From positions 320,001 through 384,000 of the forward strand of contig CAXXVO010000014.1 of assembly GCA_963422645.2 (NCBI GenBank): a stretch of DNA of 64,000 bases. Reading direction: 5' to 3'. A program made the position numbers and the translations under genes. Source of the stretch: Alphaproteobacteria bacterium. GTDB taxonomy: Bacteria; Pseudomonadota; Alphaproteobacteria; UBA828. Positions 5,316-25,086 of the stretch are shown piece after piece; position 1 is the first letter of the stretch; every line of letters starts with the position of its first letter. Under the pieces are notes generated by a model. It was not told where the DNA came from. It did not search any database and saw only the letters and a list, made by a program, of their open reading frames with translations.

Positions 5316-6036
5316 GTAACTGCCCAGGTCGTCTGATTTGTCATTTTGGGCCAGTGGATTGAGGCGTTTCTCGTTCGGAGTTGGTGGAAAGGGCTTGACG
5401 GGAATTTCGGGAAATGACTCAACAACGACATGAGCAATCCCGAGTCGCCGCGCGGCCCTTCGACGGGAGCAGCGCCCGAAACGCCCGCGCAGAAGATCGC
5501 CCGCCTGGAGGAGGAGAACGCCCGGCTTCGGGAGGAAAATGCCTGGCTTCGGCAGCAGAACGCGCGGCTGGAAGAGCAAGTCGCGCGTCTCGTCGAGCGC
5601 ATCGAGGAGTTGGAGCGCCGTCTCGGCCTCAACAGCGGCAACAGCGGCAAGCCGCCTTCGAGCGATGGGCTGAGGAAGCCGAATTCGAAGCGGCGAACCC
5701 GAAGCCTGCGCGGCAAATCGGGCCGCAAGCCCGGTGGCCAGCCCGGCCACAAGGGCAAGACGCTGCGCCGCGCCGATCACCCGGATCGGGTGAAGGATCA
5801 CGTCCCGGCTTCCTGCAAGGGATGCGGTTCGCCGCTTTCGGACGCGGCCAGGGCGGGAACGCCCGTCGCCCGCCAGGTGTTCGATCTGCCCGAGCCGAGC
5901 CCCCTGGAGGTGACCGAGCACCGGGCGCATGCCAAGTGCTGCGGGCATTGCGGGACGGTGACCCGGGCGGCGTTCCCCGACGGGGTGTCGGCGCCGGTGC
6001 AGTACGGCCCGCGCATTGCCGGGGTGGCGGTCTACC
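5316..6036 (+). mobile_element. IS66-family element type A, left part truncated by IS21
   Basis: Starts GTAACTGCCCAGG. The ORF from 5430 has a leucine zipper, NSGKPPSSD, GGQPGHKG, a Zn ribbon and PVQYGP. Confidence 0.88.
5430..6036 (+). pseudogene. IS66 transposase N-terminal fragment
   Basis: Cut at ...GVAVYL by the IS21 end. The continuation is visible in the fragment at 20471-21200. Confidence 0.85.
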
Positions 6037-6127
6037 TGTCAATCGGCTTTCAATACTGACCCCCGATCGGCGTGCAAAATTGACCCCCCTGAGTGGCAAC
6101 CGGGCCGCAAGGGAGGCCGGCGGCGGG

Positions 6128-6856
6128 TCAGGAGCGGTTCTTGAAGCGCCAGCTCTCGTTGCCGGTCTCGATGATCTCGCAATGATGGGTGAGGCGATCG
6201 AGCAGCGCTGTGGTCATCTTGGGGTCGCCGAAGACGGATGGCCATTCGCCGAAGGCGAGGTTTGTGGTGATGACGATCGAGGTGCGCTCGTAGAGCCGGC
6301 TCATCAGATGGAAGAGCAGCTGCCCACCGGCCTGGGCGAAGGGCAGGTAGCCGAGCTCGTCGAGGATGACGAAGTCGCGGCGGACGAGCTGGTCTGCAGT
6401 GCGGCCCTGGCGTCCGGCGCGAAGCTCGGCCTCGAGGAGGTTGACCAGGTCGACGACGTTGTAGCACCGGCCGCGCGCGCCCTTGCGGATGCAGGACCGC
6501 GCGATGGCGACGGCGAGATGGGTCTTGCCGGTACCGGTGCCGCCGACCAGCACGATGTTGCGTTTGCCCTCGAGGAAGCCGCCGCCGGCGAGCTCCTGGA
6601 TCAGGGGCTCGTTGACCGGCGAGGCGGCGAAGTCGAAGTCGGCCAGCTCCTTGACCGTCGGCAGCTTGGCGGAGGCCATCTGGTACTTGATCGAGCGGGC
6701 CCTCTTGTCGGCGATCTCGACCTGCAGCAGCGTACCGATGATCTGTTGCACCGGATGGCGGCGCTTGAGCCCGTCGGCAAGGATGTCGTCGTAAGCGGCG
6801 CGCATACCTGCGAGCTTCAGCTGGGTCATCATCTCCAGCACATCATGACGCTCCAT
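6128..6856 (-). CDS. istB: IS21 helper ATPase IstB
   Basis: [24 protein letters not shown] and LLDRLTHH. Confidence 0.95.
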
Positions 6857-8357
6857 GACCGGCCTCCCTCAGGCTGTCGTAGCGCTGACAGTCGGCTACC
6901 GGCTTGTGGCGAAGCTGCAGGCCCTCGGGCGTCGGGATGATTGCCGGCGGTGCCGGCTGGCGCTGCCGGGCGAGGATGTTGAGCACCACGTCGGCGCTGC
7001 AGGCACCGCAGTCGAGCGTCTCGGCACAGGCCGCCTCAACCGCCTCCAGTCCGTCCTCCAGCACCGCCGCGAGCACCTTGACGAACTGCCGGTCGCCGTC
7101 GTCGTGGCCCGCGAGCCGGGTTCGCAGGCGGCCGAGCGCGTTGGGCAACTGCCAGTCCTTGAAGGGCGCGCCATTGCGTAGCGCGCCGGGCTTCCGCGTC
7201 AGGATCGGCACGTAATGCCACGGATCGTAGACGAACCGGCCGCGCCCGAAGCTGCGGGGGTGCTCGGCAACGGTCTCGCCGTCCTGGCGGATGACGATCC
7301 GATCGGCATAGGCCCGCACGTCCACCGGCCGGCCGACGGCGCGGGCCGCGACGCTGTACTGGTTGTTGTCGAAGCGCACCAGACAGGTCTTCGAGACCGA
7401 CACCTCGCTGGCATGGAAGCCGTCGAAGGGGCCGCGATACGCCATCAGGAAGGGCTGCTCCTCCTCGAACACCTGCCACACCGTCTTGCCCGGGATTGTC
7501 GGATGCGGATGCTTCTTGGCGTCCTCGATGCACCGATCCATCAGCCACTCGTTGATCTCGGCGTAGGAGCGGCCCCGCGGGATGGGCACGAACAGGCGGC
7601 CGCGAAGGTCACCCACCTGCTTCTCGACCTGCCCCTTCTCCCAGCCAGCCCCTGGCGTGCACGCCACAGGCTCCACCAGATGGTGCGAGCACAGCTCCTG
7701 GAAGCGGCGGTTGTAGTCCCGCTTCTTGCCCACGAAGATCGTGCTCACCGCCGTCTTCATGTTGTCGTAGATGCCCCGCCGGCAGACCCCGCCGAAGAAG
7801 CGGAAGGCACGCTCGTGCGCCTCGAAGACCATCTCCTGGCTCTCGCGGGGAAAGATCTGGACCAGATACATCCGGCTGTGGCACAGCCGCATGTGCGCCG
7901 CCTTCACCCTGGTCGTCGCGCCCGACAGACGCGCGTACTCGTGGCTCCAGTCGAACTGGTAGGCCTCGCCGGGATCGAAGATCAGCGGCACATAGGCCTG
8001 CGCCGGCGACAACAGCCGCCACCGGCGCCGCCAGGCCCTGGCATAGCGGCGAACCGCGTCATAGCCGCCCTTGTAGCCCAGCGACACAAGGTCTTCATGA
8101 ATCCGCAGAAGAGACAGCCGATCCTTGCGTGCCTTCTTCTCGTTGGCCTTCAGCTGGCGCTCAAGCTCCTCCACCCACAGCCCAAGCTTCGGCATCGGCT
8201 GGATCTTGCGCTCGTAGCTGTGCGAGGTCGCATCGCCCCGCACCACCTTGCGTATCGTGTTCTTGGAAACCCTCAAATCCCGGGCGAGCTTCTTGATCGG
8301 AACGCCCTTCACCAGATGATCCCGACGGATCTTCGCGATCGTTTCCACAACCAGCAT
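6843..8357 (-). CDS. istA: IS21 transposase IstA
   Basis: N-terminal [21 protein letters not shown] and WEKGQVE. Confidence 0.95.
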
Positions 8358-8476
8358 CTCCCCCACCACCCCGTCCGTCCAAACGACGAGGTGTGTTCAT
8401 GGACACAAATCCAAGGGGGTCAATTTTGGACGCCGATCACCCCCAATAGGGGGTCACTTTTCCACGCTTAACAACA

Positions 8477-15727: not shown

Positions 15728-16241
15728 GGCGATACCCCGCATGAATTTTAGTAACTGCCCAGGTACCCCCTCTCTCTTATGGAACAAGCCAGTTCCTTTT
15801 GCGTCAACGCCCCCACGCCGCGGGGGTGCCTACTCTCTTGAGCGCGAGAGGATGATGAACGCCGCGTCGCGAACAAGATGAGAGGACAGCGATACTCAGG
15901 ATGAGCCGGAGAAGTTCAGGAGCGCAGTATAGGGATCAGCTGCATCGGTTCCGGGTGCGCCAGGATTTGCAGGATGTTCCAGCCTTGCTTTCGAGCGGTG
16001 ACGATGACGCTGCGCATTCCGGCGAAGTTGCAGGCGCCTTGCAGGGAGCGGAAGCCGCCTGAGATCTTCTCATGCACTTGCCGTGAAACAGATTCTGGCG
16101 AGGGACGCGCGGTGACGCTCCAACCCCGAGGTCACGGCGTTGGCTGAGACCGCCAGGGTCGGCGCGGCGGAGACGAGCGGTGGACTTCCCCGATGTGGTC
16201 CGAAGCGGTCCCGCGTAGCCGGCTGACGAGATGCGGGCCGC

Positions 16242-17492
16242 TCAGGCGGCCTTGAGTTCCGCGCCTACGGGCTCGATGTAGCCGTAGCGGCGGAGCATGC
16301 GGATCCACCGAGGAGCGTTGCGCTTGACCATCAGAGCGTCGTAGTCGGCCGTGCGGTCGTAGTAGGGCCTGCCGGTCTTGAGCACCACATAGATGATGCG
16401 CAGCATCTTGTGAGCGCCGGCGACGATGGCGCGCTTGTAGCCGCGCCGGGCGGCGAGGGCGCGGTGATGAGCCTCGAACTGGCACCCCTTGGTTCGGGCC
16501 GCGCCGTGGGCACACTCGACGAGGCAGGCGCGCAGGGTCTTGGAGCCCATGCGGGTGCGTGCGTTGCGGCGCTTGCCCCCGCTCTCGTTGTTGCCGGGGC
16601 AGAGCCCGGCCCAGGCGGCGAAGTGCTCCTTGGAGGCGAACACGCCGATGTCGGGGCCGATCTCGATGAGGATGGTCGAGGCGGCGGTGCGGTCGATGCC
16701 GGGGATGGTGGTCAGCAGACGGAGCTGCTCCTCCCACGGTGTCATCTGCCCGTCGATCTTCCTGGTGTAGGACGCGATGCGCGCCTCAAGCGCGTCATGC
16801 TCCTCCAGCAGGTCGTTGAGCATGAAGCGGTCGTTGTCGCCCAGGCTCAGGGTGAGCGCCTCGCCGAGCCCCTCCAGCTTGTTCGCAACGTGGCTGGTGA
16901 GCGAGGCGAGGATGACCTCGCGCGCCGTCCCCTGCGCCAGGCCGTCGAGGATCTTCCGGCCGTTGACGCCGAAGACGTCGGAGAGGATGCCGCCGATGCG
17001 CGCACCGGCGCGGTCGATGATCTTCTGCACGCGGTTGCGCACGGCGGAGCGCTGCCTGACCAGGACGCGGCGCTGGCGGCTCAGTGCGCGCAGCTCCCGG
17101 AACGGCTCAGGCGGAACGTGGGAAGGCGTGCAGAGCCCGAACTGGCACACGCAGGCCAGCCACACGCTGTCCGCCACGTCGGTCTTGCGCCCCTTCAACT
17201 GCTTCACCTGACGCGCATGCACCAGGATCGCCTCGAGCCCGGCCGCCTCCAGGGCCGCGAAGGGCGCCTGCCAGTAGACCCCGGTCCCTTCCATCACCGC
17301 AGCCTCGACGCCGTGACCGGTCAGCCACGCGACCATCTCCTCCAGACCGCTCGGCAGCGTGCCGAAGCAGCGCGTCTCCACCACCGGCTCACCCTCGCCC
17401 TCACAGAGGCGAACCGTCGCGGTGATCTCCATCTTGTGCACGTCCAGACCCGCCGCGCGCGGCCGGACGACGTGCAAGCCTTCCGTCTTCAT
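16242..17492 (-). CDS. IS110 DEDD recombinase/transposase
   Basis: GLDVHK, MEGTGVYW, KTDVADS, TIPGI and WAGLCPGNNESGGK. Confidence 0.93.
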   Translation of the reverse strand: MKTEGLHVVRPRAAGLDVHKMEITATVRLCEGEGEPVVETRCFGTLPSGLEEMVAWLTGHGVEAAVMEGTGVYWQAPFAALEAAGLEAILVHARQVKQLKGRKTDVADSVWLACVCQFGLCTPSHVPPEPFRELRALSRQRRVLVRQRSAVRNRVQKIIDRAGARIGGILSDVFGVNGRKILDGLAQGTAREVILASLTSHVANKLEGLGEALTLSLGDNDRFMLNDLLEEHDALEARIASYTRKIDGQMTPWEEQLRLLTTIPGIDRTAASTILIEIGPDIGVFASKEHFAAWAGLCPGNNESGGKRRNARTRMGSKTLRACLVECAHGAARTKGCQFEAHHRALAARRGYKRAIVAGAHKMLRIIYVVLKTGRPYYDRTADYDALMVKRNAPRWIRMLRRYGYIEPVGAELKAA

Positions 17493-17519
17493 CGCCTTCC
17501 TCCTCATTTGCGCTCTCGC

Positions 17520-17760
17520 CACGGCGGCGTACGATCACGCCGTGGCATCGCCACGGTGGAGGCGGGGACAGCGGTCGGAAGAACACGCATCCGACGAGCG
17601 GGTGCGGTGCAATTTGCCGCGCGTCCACGGCCACGGGCCGGGTACAATACGGGGTGCGGAGCCGGCCGCCGGAAGCAGTTTTGTCATCGGGAACTACGTC
17701 ACCGATATAACGACGCTCACACGTCCCCACCTCCGCCAATACCCATCCTGACACGGCAAA
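17520..17760 (-). ncRNA. Candidate IS110 bridge RNA (limits approximate)
   Basis: Lies in ~350 bp of hairpin-rich non-coding left end and has short matches to the target and to the reconstructed donor junction. Confidence 0.5.
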
Positions 17761-17956
17761 TGGGTGCAAGCGCAAGGAAAACGTCAGCCGAACCGCTCCT
17801 GTTTCATGCCACGGGGTGGCTCAGAACCGCGGGGACCATGACTGTTTTGTTCATACGGATGTCACGCTCCGCCTCGTTATTCGTGAACGGCGTGCGCAGG
17901 TCGGTGAGGAAGCGCAGGCAGCCCTCCTTATGCTTTTGAAGGCGGCGCGCGAGGTT

Positions 17957-20470
17957 CAGACTTCCTGACCTCGTGATGCTGGCTGTTCTGGGCAGCGTGC
18001 CGGGAACTCCTTGAATTCTGATACATTTCGGTTGTTTCAGGCGGTTTTTCGCTGGGTGTCGCGCCCGAGGTCTGATATTATAATTTGATACCAATTGCAC
18101 GGTCTCAACCATGCCCAGTACCCTCCCAATGTGCCCTCCAGAGGCGGTCTCGATCGGCAACAGCTGCTTCGCCGTCCTGATCTCGGACGACACCTTCACC
18201 TACTTTTCCAACCTCATTCCCTTTGACAGCCACGCCGCCGATGACCGCACGGCCATGCTCTTGCGGATCGGCCGCCTCGCGGCGATCAGCGCGGTCTCGC
18301 CGCAGGAACTGGCTGACGCTTTCGCTGTCTCGCGCGCGACGGTGCAGCGCGCACGACGGCGCTACCTGGCCGAGGGCGAAGCGGGGTTCATGAAGCCCCG
18401 GCGCGGTCGCGGGCCGTCGGTGTTCACTCCGGAGTTGGCGGAGAAGGCGACGGCGTTGCTGGCATCGGGCCTGAGCGGCTCTGCGGCGGCCCGGGTTCTC
18501 GGCGTGTCAGCGCCATCGGTCAACAAGTGGCGCCGTCAGGGACTGATCGGCAACACGGAGGCGGATGGGGAGCCCGGACGCTCAGCGCTGGCTGCGCCGC
18601 CTGACGCGGGTGCGGCTCCTGAAGGCCGTGTCGATGAAGAGAGTACCGGTGCCCCGGGGCCGGAGACGGCGCCGGGGCTGGAAGCGCAGCCGCAAACGGA
18701 TCGCAGCGCGCGCGATCGGCGGGACCGGCAGGCGCCGATGGGGCGTGCGACTTGCGATGTTCCGGCTCGGGTTCTGGCCAGTTGTGGACAGGCGGGGCCG
18801 GTCGAACCGCAGTTCGCCGCCGCCGCCCGCGGTGTCCGCTTCGGCGGCGTGCTCGCCGCCCTGCCGGCCCTGCTGAAGGAAGGTCTTCTCTCCGAGACCG
18901 GTCTCCTGCCATTGCTGCCGAAGGGCTATTACGGCTTGCCTACGATCCTGCTCTTCCTGGCCTTCATGACCTTGGCGCGGGTGCGCAACCCCGAGAGCCT
19001 GCGCTACCAGGCGCCGGGCGAATGGGGCGCCATTCTCGGCCTCGATCGCTGCCCCGAGGTCAAGACGCTGCGCCGCAAGATCGCTCTCATCGCCGACGAC
19101 GAGGCCGGCGTGCGGGCGTGGCAGCTCGCCCTTGCCAGGCGCTGGCAAGGCGCCGACGAGCCGGAGCTCTGGGCGACGCTGGCCATCGACGGGCACGTCA
19201 AGGTCTACTCCGGCCGCAAGGGGCGCTTGCCCAAGCACTTCGTCTCGCGCGAGAAGCTGTGCCTGCCGGCGAGCGCCAGCTACTGGATCAACGCTCTGGG
19301 CGGCAAGCCGCTGCTCTGTCTGCACAAGCCGCTGGACCCGAAGATGGTCGCGGCCATCGAAGCCGACGTGGTGCCGGCGCTGCAGGAGCTTGGGATCGTT
19401 GGCGCCGGGGCGCCGGACCTGACCGCCGAGCATCCCGGCCAGCCGGCGCTCACCCTGGTCTTCGACCGCGAGGGCTGGAGCCCGGATCTGTTCCGCCGGC
19501 TGGCGAGGCGCGGCGTCGCCTGCCTGACCTGGCACAAGAACTTCAGGGGCGAGGACTGGCCGGCCGAGGACTTCGGCGCGATGACCGTTCCCATTCACGG
19601 ACCGGCGGCGGACGGCAGCGCCACCATGCGGCTGGCTGAGAAGCCGGTGACGTTGCCGAACGGCTTCAGGGTGCGCCAGATCCGCCGCCTGCTCGACAAC
19701 GGCCGTCAGGTGCCGCTGATCACCACCGATCCGCACAAGCCGATGGCTGAGGTTGCGGGCGCCATGTTCTCGCGCTGGTCGCAGGAGAACTTCTTCAAGT
19801 ACATGCGTGACGAGTTCAATCTCGACGCCCTGCCGACCCACGAGCTCGAGCCTCTCGATCCCGCCGCCATGGTCGTCAACCCGCTGCGGCGGGCCTATGA
19901 CAAGGCAATCCATCGCCTCGACCGCCAGCTTGGCCGCCTGCGCAACCGCATCGCCGACACGGCCCGGAAGAAGCAGCCGACGGCGGAACTCAGGAGGGAA
20001 GTCAGGGACCTCCAGGATGTCCGCGACATCGTCAGGGCCAGCCGCAGGGAGACGCCCAAGCACTGCCGGGCCGGCGACCTCGACGAAGCCGAGCAGCTCG
20101 ATGCCTTGCCCGCGCGCGAGCGCCTCCTCCTCGACGTCATCCGGATGATCGCCTACCGCGCCGAAACCCGCATGATGCTTCCCGTCATGCAGGCGCAGGG
20201 CCACAAGCCCCATCCCCGGAAACTGCTTCAAGCGCTGCTCACCGCCGATGCCGACATCCTGCCGGATCCTGGCAATGGCCTCCTGCGGGTCCACATTCTT
20301 GGCCTCGCAAACGACGCCTGCGACCGTTGGATCGATGCGGTTCTGAGCGACCTGAACGCCACCGAAACGGTCTTCCCCGGCACCCGTCTGCGCATAGTCT
20401 ACGACATCGACGGGGCCTCGGAATCCGCGCGGCTCGTGTCACCTAAAATCAGCAGAGGTCAGGAAGTCTG
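17957..20470 (+). mobile_element. Unclassified 2514-bp IS, intact copy
   Basis: Perfect 16-bp TIR CAGACTTCCTGACCTC. A second copy lies at 30990-36175. Confidence 0.9.
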
Positions 20471-20471
20471 A
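18111..20471 (+). CDS. Large putative DDE transposase (786 aa) with N-terminal HTH domains
   Basis: Fills the TIR-bounded element. Motifs LAIDGHVKVY, LVFDREGWS and RWSQENFFKY (DDE-like). Confidence 0.82.
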   Translation: MPSTLPMCPPEAVSIGNSCFAVLISDDTFTYFSNLIPFDSHAADDRTAMLLRIGRLAAISAVSPQELADAFAVSRATVQRARRRYLAEGEAGFMKPRRGRGPSVFTPELAEKATALLASGLSGSAAARVLGVSAPSVNKWRRQGLIGNTEADGEPGRSALAAPPDAGAAPEGRVDEESTGAPGPETAPGLEAQPQTDRSARDRRDRQAPMGRATCDVPARVLASCGQAGPVEPQFAAAARGVRFGGVLAALPALLKEGLLSETGLLPLLPKGYYGLPTILLFLAFMTLARVRNPESLRYQAPGEWGAILGLDRCPEVKTLRRKIALIADDEAGVRAWQLALARRWQGADEPELWATLAIDGHVKVYSGRKGRLPKHFVSREKLCLPASASYWINALGGKPLLCLHKPLDPKMVAAIEADVVPALQELGIVGAGAPDLTAEHPGQPALTLVFDREGWSPDLFRRLARRGVACLTWHKNFRGEDWPAEDFGAMTVPIHGPAADGSATMRLAEKPVTLPNGFRVRQIRRLLDNGRQVPLITTDPHKPMAEVAGAMFSRWSQENFFKYMRDEFNLDALPTHELEPLDPAAMVVNPLRRAYDKAIHRLDRQLGRLRNRIADTARKKQPTAELRREVRDLQDVRDIVRASRRETPKHCRAGDLDEAEQLDALPARERLLLDVIRMIAYRAETRMMLPVMQAQGHKPHPRKLLQALLTADADILPDPGNGLLRVHILGLANDACDRWIDAVLSDLNATETVFPGTRLRIVYDIDGASESARLVSPKISRGQEV

Positions 20472-21200
20472 TCCTTGTCCAGCGCGATGCGGGCGGCGCG
20501 ATTGGCTCGGCGCAGGAGCTGCTGCATCCGCCGGGCCCAAGCCTCCCCTTCGATGTCCACCAGCGCCTGCAACTCCCGCAGGTGATGGGCGTTGCACAGG
20601 CCGTGCTCCACCCCTTCCATCGCGAAGTACGGCTTCCAGTGATCGTGCACGACGATGCCGGAGACACCCGAGAGCAGGGCGCCGCGCTTGCCGCTGACCC
20701 GGTACGCCGCCAGCAGCGGCGTGCAGATCACATGAAGCCACTGCGTCTGACCGCCGATCCGCAAGCCGGTCTCGTCCATGTGTTTCACCCGCGCCGTGCC
20801 CGCCGCCAGGTCCTGTATGTGCAAGGCCGCGTCCCGCAGCCGCTCGGCCGCCCTCTCGCTCATCGTCGCCAACGTCGCAGCCGTCACCGGCGCGCCGAAG
20901 AGCTCGGCCATCACCTGCGACAGCCGATCCTCCGGCAGGAAGTGAGCGTGCTGAAGGTAGACCGCCACCCCGGCAATGCGCGGGCCGTACTGCACCGGCG
21001 CCGACACCCCGTCGGGGAACGCCGCCCGGGTCACCGTCCCGCAATGCCCGCAGCACTTGGCATGCGCCCGGTGCTCGGTCACCTCCAGGGGGCTCGGCTC
21101 GGGCAGATCGAACACCTGGCGGGCGACGGGCGTTCCCGCCCTGGCCGCGTCCGAAAGCGGCGAACCGCATCCCTTGCAGGAAGCCGGGACGTGATCCTTC
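20471..21200 (-). pseudogene. Internal fragment of the IS66 type A transposase
   Basis: Matches ~5791-6036 and continues to HMDETG and CNAHHLREL. Both ends abut other ISs. Confidence 0.88.
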
Positions 21201-21365
21201 GTAACTGCCCAGGTACCCCCTCTCTCTTATGGAACAAGCCAGTTCCTTTTGCGTCAACGCCCCCACGCCGCGGGGGTGCCTACTCTCTTGAGCGCGAGAG
21301 GATGATGAACGCCGCGTCGCGAACAAGATGAGAGGACAGCGATACTCAGGATGAGCCGGAGAAGT

Positions 21366-22904
21366 TCAGGAGCGCAGTATAGGGATCAGCTGCATCGGTT
21401 CCGGGTGCGCCAGGATTTGCAGGATGTTCCAGCCTTGCTTTCGAGCGGTGACGATGACGCTGCGCATTCCGGCGAAGTTGCAGGCGCCTTGCAGGGAGCG
21501 GAAGCCGCCTGAGATCTTCTCATGCACTTTGTTCATACGGATGTCACGCTCCGCCTCGTTATTCGTGAACGGCGTGCGCAGGTCGGTGAGGAAGCGCAGG
21601 CAGCCCTCCTTATGCTTTTGAAGGCGGCGCGCGAGGTTGTGGCCGATGCGGCGTTTCTTTCGCCCTCGCTTTGCGATCTGGAGCGGCGGTTGGGCCTCAT
21701 GGAAGGCGATGGCTTCTTCGAGGATACGGTCCCATGCCCTTGAGATGCGGGCCACCAGGGAGGCGGGGACTTGACGGTCTTTCTCACGGGCGAAGCGGGC
21801 GGCCCTGCGCGCGCGCTGAAGCAGGCGGTGCATGCTCGCCGCCCATTCCTCCTTCTCGATGTCGATCAGGGCCTGGAGTTCGCGCAGGTGATGTGCGTTG
21901 CAGGCGCCGTGGCGGACGCCCTTGATGGTGAAGTAGGGGGCGAAGTCGTCGTGGACGAGGATGCCTTTCAGGTTCTTTTCGACATCGCCGCGTCCCTCGC
22001 CGATGCGCAGGACGGTGAGCAACGGGGTGCACAGCACATGGAGCCAGCGGGTACGGGCGGCGATACGCAGGCCGGTCTCGTCGAGGTGCTTGACCGGCGC
22101 CTGCGTGCGGATCAGATCGGCGACATGGTCGAGGAAGCCCTCGAAGCGCTGCGCTGTGCGCCGGCCCATGGCGGCGATCGTGGCAGTGGAGATGGACACC
22201 GCGAAGATGTCGCTCATGAGTTCGGCCAGACGCTTCTCGGGCACGAACTGGGCGTACAGCAGGTAACTCACCCAAGCGGTGATGCGAGGGCCGTACTGGA
22301 CCGGGGCGGTGACGCCCGGCGGGAAGGCGGCTCGTGTCAGCGTGCCGCATGCGCCGCAGAGGCAGCGATGGGCGCGGTGTTCGGTGACCTCGAGAGGCTG
22401 CGGCTCGGGTACGTCGAAGACCTGCCGACAGGCGGGCGCGCCTTGCCGGTCGGCGTCCGAGAGCTCGACGCCACAGCCGGAACAGGTGGAGGGGTGGTGA
22501 TCGACGACACGGTCCGGGCTGTCGCTCCGCGCGAGGGTGGTTCCCTTGTGGCCGGGCTGGCCGCCACTGGGCCCGCCGGACTTTCCGCGCTGGCTTTGGG
22601 TGCGCCTCTGGGCTCCGCTTTTCTTCTTGAGCCCGTCGCTGGCGGGGGGCTTGCTGCTTGTGGTGCTGTTGAGGGCCGCGCTGCGCTCGAGTTCGGCGAT
22701 GCGCTCGCGCAGGGCCGCGTTCTCCTGCTCGAGTGCGGCATTTTCCCGGGCGAGCGCGGTGGCTGATCGCAGCAGCCCCTGCCCCCATTCCCGGACGGCA
22801 ACGACGACAGTGGTTGCGAGGGATGATGGCTCGAGAAGCTCCTTCAGGCAGCAGAAGGCCTCGTTACGGGCGGCGAGGTCTTCGTGCCAGTGCGACACCG
22901 TCAC
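21366..22904 (-). CDS. IS66-family transposase (single-ORF, TnpC-like)
   Basis: SSKPPASD, GGQPGHKG, HLDETG, CNAHHLREL and FTNNEAERDIR. The GTG start overlaps the MTase stop. Confidence 0.9.
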   Translation of the reverse strand: MTVSHWHEDLAARNEAFCCLKELLEPSSLATTVVVAVREWGQGLLRSATALARENAALEQENAALRERIAELERSAALNSTTSSKPPASDGLKKKSGAQRRTQSQRGKSGGPSGGQPGHKGTTLARSDSPDRVVDHHPSTCSGCGVELSDADRQGAPACRQVFDVPEPQPLEVTEHRAHRCLCGACGTLTRAAFPPGVTAPVQYGPRITAWVSYLLYAQFVPEKRLAELMSDIFAVSISTATIAAMGRRTAQRFEGFLDHVADLIRTQAPVKHLDETGLRIAARTRWLHVLCTPLLTVLRIGEGRGDVEKNLKGILVHDDFAPYFTIKGVRHGACNAHHLRELQALIDIEKEEWAASMHRLLQRARRAARFAREKDRQVPASLVARISRAWDRILEEAIAFHEAQPPLQIAKRGRKKRRIGHNLARRLQKHKEGCLRFLTDLRTPFTNNEAERDIRMNKVHEKISGGFRSLQGACNFAGMRSVIVTARKQGWNILQILAHPEPMQLIPILRS

Positions 22905-23566
22905 GTGTCTTCGGCCTCGACGGCCATCATGGCGGCGAGCACGGCGAGGCGTTCGCCCGGCGGCAAGGCCTGGTAGCGCCGGCCCCAGTTGGCTGCCTTG
23001 CGCTTGATGCGCTGGCGGTCGGTGAAGTTCCGGCCTGCGTGGCTGGCCCAATGCATCCGGTCGGGGGCGTAGTTGAACCAGACGACCTCGGTTCGCACCA
23101 GACCCTGGGTCGTGACCTGCAGCGCCAGCCGGCGCCATCCCGCCAGCACCTCGTCATAGAGCGCCGACGGATGGCCCGAGATCATGACCTGGCAGGGCAG
23201 AGCCTTGAGCAGCGCGAGAAGCGCGACGTGGCCGGCCTCCTCGTACTCGAAGCGGTAGCGCTGCGCCGAGCGGCGGGTCGCGTGCAGATAGGGCGGATCG
23301 CTGTAAACCAGCTCCGGGCCCAGGAACGGGAACGAGGCCAGGAAGTCATGGGCACAGCCGTGAACCAGATCGACCGGGTAGTCGCAGACGAAGGCCTCGA
23401 GCGCCTGCGCATCGCGGTCGATGCCGATCGAACGCACGGCCGGCGGCTTGCGCTTCATCAGCGCCCCGCCCCCAAGGTGGCTTTCGATGTAGACGGAGTG
23501 CGGCGGCATCAGCGCAATCAGCGCTTGGCACAGACCTGCTGTCGCCTTCGAGCCGAAATACCCCAT
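22901..23566 (-). CDS. Short DNA adenine methyltransferase (Dam/D12-like, alpha order)
   Basis: YFGSK motif X, motif I-like YIESHLGGGA, catalytic YSDPPY, MISG and RTEVVW. Confidence 0.85.
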   Translation of the reverse strand: MGYFGSKATAGLCQALIALMPPHSVYIESHLGGGALMKRKPPAVRSIGIDRDAQALEAFVCDYPVDLVHGCAHDFLASFPFLGPELVYSDPPYLHATRRSAQRYRFEYEEAGHVALLALLKALPCQVMISGHPSALYDEVLAGWRRLALQVTTQGLVRTEVVWFNYAPDRMHWASHAGRNFTDRQRIKRKAANWGRRYQALPPGERLAVLAAMMAVEAEDT

Positions 23567-23709
23567 GGACCGCTCCCGTCACGCGAGAGAGCAGTCCATA
23601 GTCCCGCAACTCTATGAGGTCAAGAACCAATCGCGGTGGCAGAACCAGGCCGCGGCCGCCGCCATAATCACCGTCCTCAACTCAGGATTGGGGTACCTGG
23701 GTAGTTACG

Positions 23710-23810
23710 GTGGGACAAGAAATTCAAAATTTTTCGTGGGATTCGCGGGATAAGTGGGATGTAAGTGGGATAAGTGGGATAGCTGGGATAAGTGGGACAA
23801 GTGAGATTCC
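23710..23810. repeat. Array of ~9-bp GTGGGA(T/C)AA repeats
   Basis: Eight tandem degenerate units at 23736-23809 plus one at 23710. Confidence 0.85.
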
Positions 23811-23925
23811 TCGGCGCAGGCGGCGGCCGTGCCGCTCAAGGGTATCGACGACGAGGCGGGCCATGTTGCCTCCGCCCGCTGCGGCCCGCTCGCTCCGGCG
23901 CCGTCGGTTCTCGCCCTTCGTCGCG

Positions 23926-23997
23926 CCGATAGGCGCGCGAGAGCATGAGCCGATAGGCGCGCGCGAGCATGAGCCGATGGCCGCGCGGGAGCATGAT
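23926..23997. repeat. 3 x 24-bp tandem repeat
   Basis: CCGATAGGCGCGCGAGAGCATGAG and two variants. Confidence 0.85.
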
Positions 23998-24070: not shown

Positions 24071-24643
24071 TCAGCCAAACTCCACGTATCCATGATTTGC
24101 AACGACTTCCATGTCGATGGGACCGTCTTGTTCGCAGAATACGATCAGGTTTCTGGCGGATTTTTCGCGAGCGCTTGGGACCAGCAAACCATCGGCTCCG
24201 AGGAACGCACAGGCCTCGGCGATTTCCTGGGAACGCGGATACTCGCGCTCGCGCTCCACATAGCTCAACTGGCCGAACGAACCGACGTCGAACCCGATGG
24301 AGGCCAGCGAATCCAGATCGGAGAACTGCACGACCGCACGCAGGGATATTCTCAATTCGAACAGCTCGTATCGAACCTTTGAAGGCGGCAAGGGTTGGCC
24401 TTGATAGAGATGGAAGCGTCTCTCGCTGACGGCCGCGGTTCTCGTCTCCGACGTGTAAAGCACATCGAGCGTTCCGTCGTCCCAACGCCCCCCGGCCCGC
24501 CAACAGGTCAGCGGATCCCGCCCTTCGCGTACCGAACGCCACACCCTGCCCTTGTAGGGAGCCCCTTCGATCAACTCCAGCGCATCGAGCAGTCGCTGGT
24601 CGCGGATGCGGCGAACGCCCTGGCCCATGACCCTTCGGGGCAT
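24071..24643 (-). CDS. RES-domain toxin (NAD+ phosphorylase family)
   Basis: VWR, GGRWD...VLYTS...E and GLLVPSAR...NLIVF. Confidence 0.85.
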   Translation of the reverse strand: MPRRVMGQGVRRIRDQRLLDALELIEGAPYKGRVWRSVREGRDPLTCWRAGGRWDDGTLDVLYTSETRTAAVSERRFHLYQGQPLPPSKVRYELFELRISLRAVVQFSDLDSLASIGFDVGSFGQLSYVEREREYPRSQEIAEACAFLGADGLLVPSAREKSARNLIVFCEQDGPIDMEVVANHGYVEFG

Positions 24644-24645
24644 GC

Positions 24646-24996
24646 TCAGATGTAGGCGTCCGCTTCCAGGCGATCGAGAATTGCGATGACCTCTTCGGTC
24701 CGCTCGTCATGGATCAGGTCGATTGCCCTGCGGCCCTCCAGCTGCGGATGCCGCGCATAGAGCCACGCGCGTACTTCTTCGTGGCCGTAATATTCGCTCA
24801 GTCGCATGACCACGTAGGCGAGATCCGACATGATCAGCTGGGTCTTCGGATGCGGCGATTTTTGGCCGCTTCCCCAGCGCGAGACGGTGGCCTTGGAGAC
24901 GCCAGTGAAATTCGCGATGTCGGTTCCCTTCAAACCGCCATCTTGCTGCAGCCGCGCGATGAATTGCACGACGGGTCTTGCTGCGGCCTGAGTCAT
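24646..24996 (-). CDS. Xre/MbcA/ParS-like antitoxin
   Basis: HTH IANFTGVSKATVSRW and WLYARHPQLEGRRAIDLI. Confidence 0.85.
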   Translation of the reverse strand: MTQAAARPVVQFIARLQQDGGLKGTDIANFTGVSKATVSRWGSGQKSPHPKTQLIMSDLAYVVMRLSEYYGHEEVRAWLYARHPQLEGRRAIDLIHDERTEEVIAILDRLEADAYI

Positions 24997-25086
24997 GCCG
25001 AACTCCGCTGGGTCAGTGCCACGGGGACATGTCGCGTCTTCAAGGGCAGCGGAGACGGCGACCGTCCTCTGCATTTATGTTTCAGA

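Follow-up and report, generated by a model that had tools for sequence, protein, structure and literature searches.

Insertion sequences (ISs) of the IS66 family have terminal inverted repeats (TIRs) that start with GTAA, generate 8-bp target duplications and include an ISBst12-like group whose members carry a single transposase. Among other ISs, InsA of IS1 is an IS-encoded repressor of transposase expression, and host Dam controls IS10 and IS50. We analysed a stretch of 64,000 nucleotides, termed the window, from an alphaproteobacterial genome assembly of the UBA828 lineage (GCA_963422645.2, contig CAXXVO010000014.1, positions 320,001 to 384,000, forward strand). At 21201..23708 it contains an IS66 element in which the transposase gene (gene 2) is preceded by a gene for a Dam-like protein (gene 1). 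ISs that carry passenger genes, the transporter ISs (tISs), include some with methyltransferases, and IS220 of the IS1380 family is given as an example in the available text of PMC11891212, which cites Siguier et al. The one tested relative of the gene-1 protein is Upf31 of the IncP-1beta plasmid pBP136, described in a preprint (10.1101/2024.02.05.579024). According to the available part of that preprint, Upf31 showed neither GATC methylation in GATC digests nor a signal by the single-molecule real-time (SMRT) method of sequencing in methylation-free E. coli. It did act as a repressor at its own promoter, where XylE activity fell from 4.76 to 0.09 units and for which an inverted repeat is the operator candidate. 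This autorepression required the C-terminal domain, which was modelled as a dimerisation domain and is also predicted to bind KorB.

Taken together, our results leave very little doubt that 21201..23708 is an intact, recently active single-transposase IS66 element in which the transposase comes second in a two-gene unit. Gene 1, on the same near-certain footing, encodes a Upf31-family protein that combines a Dam-type catalytic domain lacking a recognition domain with a conserved two-helix C-terminal domain. It forms a discrete cassette of ~730 bp, reaching from a -35 box to the stop codon, which has its own promoter region and is found ahead of transposases from IS701 elements and from two deep IS66 lineages, within TIRs and target duplications. 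The element resembles ISBst12-like IS66 elements in its DDE_Tnp_IS66 and zf-IS66 domains, its GTAA ends, its mostly AT-rich 8-bp duplications and the lack of tnpA and tnpB. It differs from them by the 666-bp Upf31-like gene and its promoter between the left TIR and the transposase. As in tISs, a non-transposase gene lies within the TIRs and moves with the element, in all 36 + 14 full copies of the two families described below. IS220, however, of which the available text makes a passing mention, belongs to another IS family, whereas gene 1 lies upstream of the transposase, is co-oriented with and coupled to it, brings a promoter and recurs in two IS families. A full-text literature search, with the IS catalogues ISfinder and TnPedia outside its scope, found no IS66 or IS701 element with gene 1, nor the cassette with its conserved repeat. 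It also found no link between Upf31 and transposons, and the Upf31 preprint contains neither 'transpos' nor 'insertion sequence'. Passenger genes of ISs, methyltransferases included, are already known; the variant that appears to be new, in that it was not found in the literature, is an IS66 or IS701 element with a portable Upf31-like cassette.

The 2508-bp element, whose genes are on the minus strand, is bounded by the TIRs GTAACTACCCAGGTACCCC on the gene-1 side (23690..23708, the left end in gene orientation) and GTAACTGCCCAGGTACCCC on the transposase side (21201..21219). Read directly, the two agree at 18 of 19 positions, and a repeat finder recovers them as a 20-nt inverted repeat (21200-21219 and 23690-23709) that is 95% complementary. 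They begin with GTAA, as is typical of the IS66 family, and, when up to two mismatches are allowed, the window holds four instances of the 14-nt terminal word (0.18 expected; four reached in 0/100 shuffles). The interior consists of two minus-strand open reading frames (ORFs) only. Gene 1 (22901..23566) encodes a 221-aa protein with the sequence YSDPPYL, in which DPPY occupies residues 90-93. Gene 2 (21366..22904), which has a GTG start, encodes a 512-aa DDE transposase of the TnpC type that matches PF03050 (DDE_Tnp_IS66; 4.4e-41, residues 202-474), DUF6444 and zf-IS66 and scores 289.7 bits against NF033517 (cut-off 180). The GTG start codon of gene 2 overlaps the TGA stop codon of gene 1 in a GTGA sequence (22901..22904, minus strand), and the same is true for all five distinct elements of this lineage, termed IS66a, that were examined. 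Neither tnpA nor tnpB is present in the 2508 bp. Thus, with two ORFs of which the upstream one is Dam-like, the organisation is that of a single-transposase element, not that of a canonical three-gene IS66; and since there is no space for a third gene, a restriction enzyme is absent too. This agrees with the first-pass annotation, which had described 19-bp TIRs enclosing exactly two genes, joined by a stop/start overlap, and no restriction enzyme. Just inside the transposase-side end (21231-21246, plus strand) there is an inward-facing, terminator-like hairpin, GGAACAAGCCAGTTCC with TTTTGCG after it. It could stop read-through from outside; the hairpin count is not above that of shuffled sequences.

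The host genome (5.9 Mb in 23 contigs, 67% GC) contains 36 full-length copies of this element, termed family 1, which are at least 99.7% identical and all carry gene 1. Perfect 8-bp target duplications flank 22 of them, and the duplicated octamers are 62.5% AT. A second family of 2461 bp has an identical two-gene layout and 14 full copies, 11 of them with a perfect 8-bp duplication; its gene-1 protein is 86% and its transposase 76% identical to those of family 1. Across the genome, 74 of the 75 full-length gene-1 copies are followed by an IS66 transposase start 0 or 6 nt downstream. The ratio of nonsynonymous to synonymous substitution rates (dN/dS) is 0.11-0.32 for gene 1 (28/28 pairs) and 0.24-0.37 for the transposase (6/6 pairs). 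Linkage, mobility and purifying selection together therefore argue that gene 1 is an integral, selected component of an active element. The window also holds part of a sibling element without gene 1, IS66-A (5316..6040, plus strand; TIR GTAACTGCCCAGGT), which was recognised by its terminal word and by tblastn and is interrupted by an IS21-type element. It has the first 14 terminal bases in common with family 1. From its TIR at 5316 it is 114 nt to an ATG at 5430, which is in frame with a tblastn match (5547-6038; 65% identity) to the family-1 transposase, residues 51-215. No methyltransferase-like match was found at this locus, so the comparison that the first-pass annotation had drawn with a sibling lacking the gene stands. 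The 5' part of IS66-A is present in ~100 copies in the host genome.

We then turned to the gene-1 protein. It has no match in Pfam at E ≤ 0.01 (PF02086 gives 12.1 bits, cut-off 22) and none among PDB sequences at E ≤ 10, and it scores 22.1 bits against TIGR00571, under the cut-off of 114.85. It matches PHROG_56 (2e-17) and the PADLOC model MTase_II for type II methyltransferases (5.6e-22). An AlphaFold (AF2) model built from 44 sequences has a pLDDT (predicted local distance difference test) score of 91.6. Its residues 1-167 superimpose on E. coli Dam (2g1p_B) with a Z score of 18.3 and a root-mean-square deviation (rmsd) of 2.2 over 149 residues. T4 Dam (1yf3_B, Z 18.2) and DpnM (2dpm, Z 17.6) match similarly (rmsd range 2.0-2.3, ~150 residues aligned), generic methyltransferases score ~4 units lower (Z ~14), and Foldseek concurs. 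Because the 149 aligned residues are spread over Dam residues 8-270, leaving ~100 Dam residues unmatched, the DNA-recognition domain of Dam is missing from the modelled protein. Moreover, DPPY follows straight after the strand 85-89, so that no recognition domain is inserted between it and the half predicted to bind S-adenosylmethionine (SAM). The C-terminal domain (181-219) is modelled as two helices, 181-199 and 203-219. Among the 44 sequences, which go down to 40% identity, G5, G32, D90, P91 and P92 are invariant, and K7 and Y93 are found in at least 90%.

The gene-1 protein thus resembles the D12-class enzymes, such as E. coli Dam, T4 Dam and DpnM, in its catalytic fold, an N-terminal YxGxK-like motif, the glycine loop and DPPY. 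It differs from them in lacking the ~100-residue recognition domain, in its extra C-terminal helical pair and in falling under the curated cut-offs. Of the first-pass label 'DNA adenine methyltransferase', the Dam fold and the DPPY motif hold up; set against it are the sub-threshold Pfam and TIGRFAM scores, the missing recognition domain and the lack of a methylation signal for Upf31 in the available account. The label stands for a putative activity, based on predicted fold and motifs. The similarity to Upf31 of pBP136 covers residues 1-218 against 1-222 with 45% identity and 63% positives (E 8e-68), the C-terminal domain included, and the two have a Dam-like globular domain in common. The family is large: 3707 proteins match at E ≤ 0.001 in one collection, and another holds 5660 cluster representatives. 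Homologues are found on 196 plasmids, of which 134 are conjugative, upf31.0 of IncP-1beta plasmids being among them.

To see where gene 1 occurs elsewhere, we scanned one genome per species, which yielded 142 confirmed relatives; the best 80 loci, which are 69-95% identical, were kept (loci are numbered with the prefix L). By the taxa given in the records, they come from Alphaproteobacteria, Gammaproteobacteria, Tectimicrobiota, Dehalococcoidia, Binatia, Planctomycetota, Acidobacteria, Bacillota and Uhrbacteria. A transposase gene lies directly downstream on the same strand in 78 of the 80 loci, comprising 62 of the IS66a type, nine of a second type, IS66b, and seven of the IS701 type. A narrow first criterion had given 64/80, and three further transposase queries, four in all, raised the count to 78. 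The two exceptions, L080 and L083, are from one genome and are followed by an IS630-type gene or by IS110/IS5-like fragments. The IS66b transposases are only 26-31% identical to that of family 1, and their elements end in GTAACTACTCACCC; the one at L101 is 2253 bp long and has the target duplication ACCAGCAG. The IS701-type transposase (DDE_5) scores 298 bits against NF049999 (cut-off 170). The IS701 elements with the cassette are ~2.78 kb long and have CTCGACTTTGTAC in their ends. Between copies at different sites, homology starts and stops exactly at these ends, and CTNAG is found on both sides in 5/5 copies. The gene-1 proteins that accompany IS701 transposases are 82-85% identical to the window protein. 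Outside IS66a, the junction between the two genes is an ATGA overlap in the IS701 element L104 and a gap of 10-76 nt elsewhere.

These counts, together with the 36/36 copies, the 74/75 linked genes, the layout of family 2 and the dN/dS values, uphold the view of the first-pass annotation that gene 1 is built into the element. Copies lacking gene 1 and homologues without a transposase next to them, which that annotation had named as signs against its proposal, were not what we saw: all 36 full copies carry the gene, and 78/80 loci are linked. An association restricted to IS66, in contrast, has to be given up, as the gene and its promoter are also found within IS701-family elements. Between left end and promoter, the IS701 cassette elements (L087:3479-3766, minus strand; L104, L084, L088) also have a conserved ORF of 95 aa in divergent orientation to the cassette; it matches nothing but DUF3024, and that weakly (E 0.0031, under the cut-off).

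What moves between the IS families can be delimited by comparing family 1 with the IS701 element L088. In blastn, the alignment is confined to family-1 positions 86-811 (82% identity); it starts with the first T of TTGACC and ends 3 nt beyond the stop codon of gene 1. These limits of homology indicate that the mobile module is a promoter-plus-gene cassette of ~730 bp. Its upstream part, all on the minus strand, begins at element position 86 with a -35-like box, TTGACC (23618..23623), a start that coincides with the blastn boundary to L088. A -10-like box, TATGGA (23595..23600), follows 17 nt past it, its counterparts in other lineages being TATGCT or TATACT, and a Shine-Dalgarno-like GGGAG (23573..23577) lies 6 nt ahead of the ATG. 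Read by eye and from their conservation, the two boxes form a putative promoter. Between them lies an inverted repeat, ATAG-N10-CTAT (23598..23615; ATAGAGTTGCGGGACTAT in gene orientation), which its conservation upstream of gene 1 makes a candidate operator. The layout is common to all lineages: TTGACn, 2-3 bases, (C)ATAG, 10 variable bases and CTAT(G), which overlaps a -10-like TATGnn.

In 76 of the 80 loci (26 of 30 distinct upstream sequences), the exact motif lies no more than 100 nt upstream of gene 1, and the other four loci are one base off. Arms and spacing are constant and the spacer sequence is free to vary, so the repeat resembles the operator of a dimeric DNA-binding protein. In the host genome, 77 of the 83 occurrences of ATAG-N10-CTAT lie upstream of gene-1 copies, compared with ~13 occurrences expected from base composition, and 23598..23615 is the sole site with at most one mismatch in the whole element. 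Among six plasmid homologues examined, those of Xanthomonas (L105) and Shewanella (L110) each have two exact sites upstream. The Shine-Dalgarno-like sequence also lies in the 3' arm of a possible hairpin in the 5' untranslated region (UTR; 23555-23603 and 13 related loci), in which CTCT pairs with the GGAG of the ribosome-binding site. It is weakly supported, with -8.4 kcal/mol in RNAalifold for the 14 sequences and a compensatory change in 2/14 pairs. The 5' UTRs of IS66b elements (L101:3945-4000, L102, L096, L097, L099) have a different, GATC-containing inverted repeat downstream of the -10 box and just before the start codon (TTGATCCAA ... TTGGATC/GGATCAA), possibly an RNA hairpin or else a second site for a protein.

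In a protein tree of 45 rows, the IS-linked sequences form one clade (100/99) separate from the plasmid homologues, and within it there is one sub-clade per transposase partner: IS66b (99/92), IS701 (99/91) and IS66a (88/78). This fits a small number of partner switches. Identical proteins were merged for this tree, L086, L087 and L091-L093 were left out since their extracted ORFs were shorter than 200 residues, and L098 is labelled IS66b despite its differing TIRs and a transposase that is 26% identical to that of family 1. In a tree of 12 transposases, a branch with support of 100/100 parts IS66b from IS66a together with four cassette-less relatives. An approximately unbiased (AU) test on the same 12 sequences did not reject the grouping of all cassette-bearing IS66 transposases (p 0.19). 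The IS66a transposases have a lineage-specific N-terminal stretch of ~45-57 residues that cannot be aligned with the cassette-less relatives. Upstream of the nearest plasmid-borne relatives of the transposase (44-48% identical), tblastn found no gene 1 in 3/3 loci, with no match better than E 8. Among 40 relatives of the host genome, seven have any match, and the close type is limited to four of them, G004, G011 (23 matches), G014 and G035, a patchy distribution that fits horizontal spread and local bursts.

Upf31 and the gene-1 protein also agree in that the pBP136 upf31 promoter has a TTGAC -35 box directly followed by an inverted-repeat region. They differ in setting, as upf31 belongs to a plasmid backbone and gene 1 to the interior of an IS, ahead of a transposase. 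The IS-linked proteins form a clade of their own, the operator candidate of pBP136 consists of CAGCATCG repeats and not of ATAG-N10-CTAT, and the KorB partner is without a counterpart here.

Given the conserved inverted repeat in the cassette promoter, which points to repression by binding, we consider it more likely that the gene-1 protein is a repressor of the transposase than a simple DNA methylase. It would bind (C)ATAG-N10-CTAT(G) between the -35 and -10 boxes, probably as a dimer through its C-terminal domain, and would thereby repress its own transcription. Since the transposase appears to have no promoter of its own, and is coupled by GTGA or starts within ~120 nt, its synthesis would be repressed along with that of gene 1, the cassette transcript being its only source. 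A diffusible repressor would allow every copy to damp every other, which would amount to a copy-number-dependent negative feedback on transposition. This would be akin to IS1 InsA, or to Dam acting on IS10 and IS50, in that the first gene's small product, or methylation of adenines at a promoter or end, restricts transposase synthesis. The candidate repressor differs in its predicted methyltransferase fold, in an origin other than the transposase and in being interchangeable among IS families. We give the mechanism as a whole, in which the protein binds the repeat, represses the cassette promoter and so limits the transposase in trans across copies, about an even chance of being right, arguing largely by analogy with Upf31.

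A number of points weigh against this mechanism. It is borrowed, for an IS-borne protein, from a plasmid protein that is 45% identical to it. The CAGCATCG repeats of pBP136 differ from ATAG-N10-CTAT, and 4/6 of the plasmid homologues examined lack the exact motif. A strict scan for the sigma-70 consensus over 21150-23760 called no promoter, the TATGGA box being a weak -10 box. As CTAT overlaps this box, part of the conservation of the repeat may reflect conservation of the promoter. With 36 + 14 full copies in the genome, the feedback, if any, has failed to hold copy number low; the cassette-less IS66-A, at ~100, is even more numerous. IS701 elements of the L088 type, moreover, have 67-76 nt between the stop codon and the transposase start, which leaves room for a separate promoter. 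The chief doubt comes from the protein itself: the invariant D90-P91-P92, G32 and G5, with K7 in at least 90% of sequences, suggest that SAM binding or catalysis matters, and such motifs are hard to explain in a pure DNA-binding repressor.

In one alternative, the protein would be an active, highly site-specific N6-adenine methyltransferase with a target inside the element, for example the ATAG/CTAT adenines of its own promoter. Expression would then follow methylation state, and hence replication, as a self-encoded analogue of host Dam on IS10 and IS50. The Dam catalytic fold (Z 18.3, 18.2 and 17.6 for the three Dam-type structures), the DPP and glycine loop invariant in 44 sequences with Y in at least 90%, the PHROG_56 and MTase_II matches and the adenines in both half-sites of the conserved repeat all speak for it. 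Nevertheless, Upf31, the sole family member tested, gave neither GATC methylation nor a SMRT signal in the available account, the Dam recognition domain is absent (149 residues aligned across Dam 8-270), and no adenine-containing motif common to the TIRs of the three IS lineages was found. The SMRT result itself may be less telling than it seems, because, as far as the available text indicates, Upf31 was expressed from pCW-LIC-upf31, a construct that probably lacked the operator; in that case, a target that is rare and bipartite may have escaped detection. We consider this alternative unlikely. Similarly doubtful is a combination of the two ideas, in which a dimeric, Dam-derived protein without a general recognition domain would recognise only its ATAG-N10-CTAT operator and would both repress it and methylate its adenines. 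The transposase would then be made only after replication or upon entry into a naive cell, and the module would have been captured repeatedly by IS66, IS701 and conjugative plasmids. If true, this would explain why Upf31 seemed inactive in a genome-wide methylation test. The element ends as a methylation target were considered and dropped: GGTACC is in both family-1 ends, family 2 and L027 lack it in their transposase-side ends, and the ends of IS66b and IS701 differ.

A protective or host-directed role, as cargo, is in our estimate improbable as well. Gene 1 would then encode an orphan methyltransferase that acts broadly or at a common restriction site and protects plasmids or phages carrying the element, or benefits the host, and its link to transposases would be hitch-hiking. 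The occurrence of homologues on 196 plasmids, 134 of them conjugative, would fit such a role, as would a Xanthomonas plasmid homologue close to transfer and stability genes, the name 'DNA adenine methylase' that family members bear in source databases, and the patchy spread (7/40 relatives with any match, four with the close type), which fits horizontal transfer. ISs with methyltransferase passengers, moreover, are an accepted category, as the mention of IS220 indicates. Yet a protective gene needs neither the upstream, same-strand position ahead of a transposase in 78/80 loci and three IS lineages, nor the start overlap, nor a promoter with a conserved inverted repeat, and it would be expected to come with the methylation that went undetected for Upf31 in the available preprint text (10.1101/2024.02.05.579024) and with the recognisable target-recognition domain that is absent here. 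Very unlikely, finally, is a role as transposition cofactor, in which the protein would act with the transposase at the element ends, in the place of TnpA and TnpB of three-gene IS66 elements, and not at the promoter. Gene 1 does lie upstream of a tnpC-type gene to which it is translationally coupled, the IS66a transposases do have their own N-terminal stretch, and Upf31 is predicted, in the available text, to bind a partner, KorB, through its C-terminal domain. A cofactor, however, would hardly be expected to serve, at 82-85% identity, an unrelated IS701 transposase with different ends, or IS66b transposases that are just 26-31% identical to that of family 1; and cassette-less siblings with 14 terminal bases in common outnumber family 1 in the same genome. 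As to the methylation-based roles that the first-pass annotation had proposed, namely control of transposition, protection from restriction and change of the host methylome, the promoter repeat shifts the weight, as they were worded, towards repression by binding and not, or not only, methylation.

The window copy has no target duplication (flanks GATCCTTC and GGTGGGAC compared), and a fragment of an IS66-A-type transposase (20426..21196, minus strand; residues ~135-390, 56% identical) abuts its left side, so the copy was probably rearranged after insertion. On the far side of this fragment is a 786-aa protein (18111-20471, plus strand) that matches PF21804, 'Transposase_29' (1.1e-99), and has N-terminal helix-turn-helix domains. 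The end of the PF21804 element, which in the window abuts the IS66-A fragment, has ~92 matches in the genome. A repeated composite made up of IS66-A and this element was considered and rejected, as 97 of 100 IS66-A copies continue normally and only two matches span the junction. A broken family-1 copy (15751-17956) has its transposase-side TIR at 15751 and transposase C-terminal fragments at 15919-16080 and 17843-17956 (97-98% identical), split by inserted DNA. The IS66-A copy at 5316-8471 is interrupted at ~6041 by the IS21-type element, which has an ORF with rve and Mu-transpos_C_2 domains (6843-8369, minus strand); the far part of this query has ~69 matches in the host genome. In all, at least five IS types saturate the genome. 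Directly right of the studied element, 23733-23814 consists of seven overlapping copies of a repeat with a 9-nt period (consensus ~GGGATAAGT). A sequence like AAAATTTT...GGGATTC.CGGGA borders other copies of families 1 and 2 in the genome, and the repeat region resembles the end of another repeated element that is a target of these ISs. Three tandem 24-nt units (GCCGATAGGCGCGCGAGAGCATGA and variants) follow at 23925-23996. Adjoining the IS cluster at 24071-25074 (minus strand) is a RES-Xre toxin-antitoxin pair, a RES-domain ORF (PF08808, 6.9e-18) preceded by an antitoxin ORF of the Xre/MbcA/ParS type (PF09722, 4.4e-06).

The usual picture of an IS is that of two repeats with a transposase in between. 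In the present elements, another gene, which is strongly conserved, supplies the putative promoter that would drive the transposase, and one cassette of promoter and gene has been exchanged between transposase families that are unrelated, IS66 and IS701. By the records, the cassette occurs in at least eight phylum-level groups. This provides a concrete candidate for a trans-acting copy-number regulator in genomes with very heavy IS loads, and a candidate natural function for the plasmid protein Upf31, the role of which is unsettled. It also calls for caution in annotation, as the thousands of proteins labelled 'DNA adenine methylase' in this family (3707, or 5660 cluster representatives) may be regulators or very narrow enzymes and not orphan methylases. 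If they are mislabelled, symbiont metagenomes would yield distorted numbers of genes for methylation and restriction-modification.

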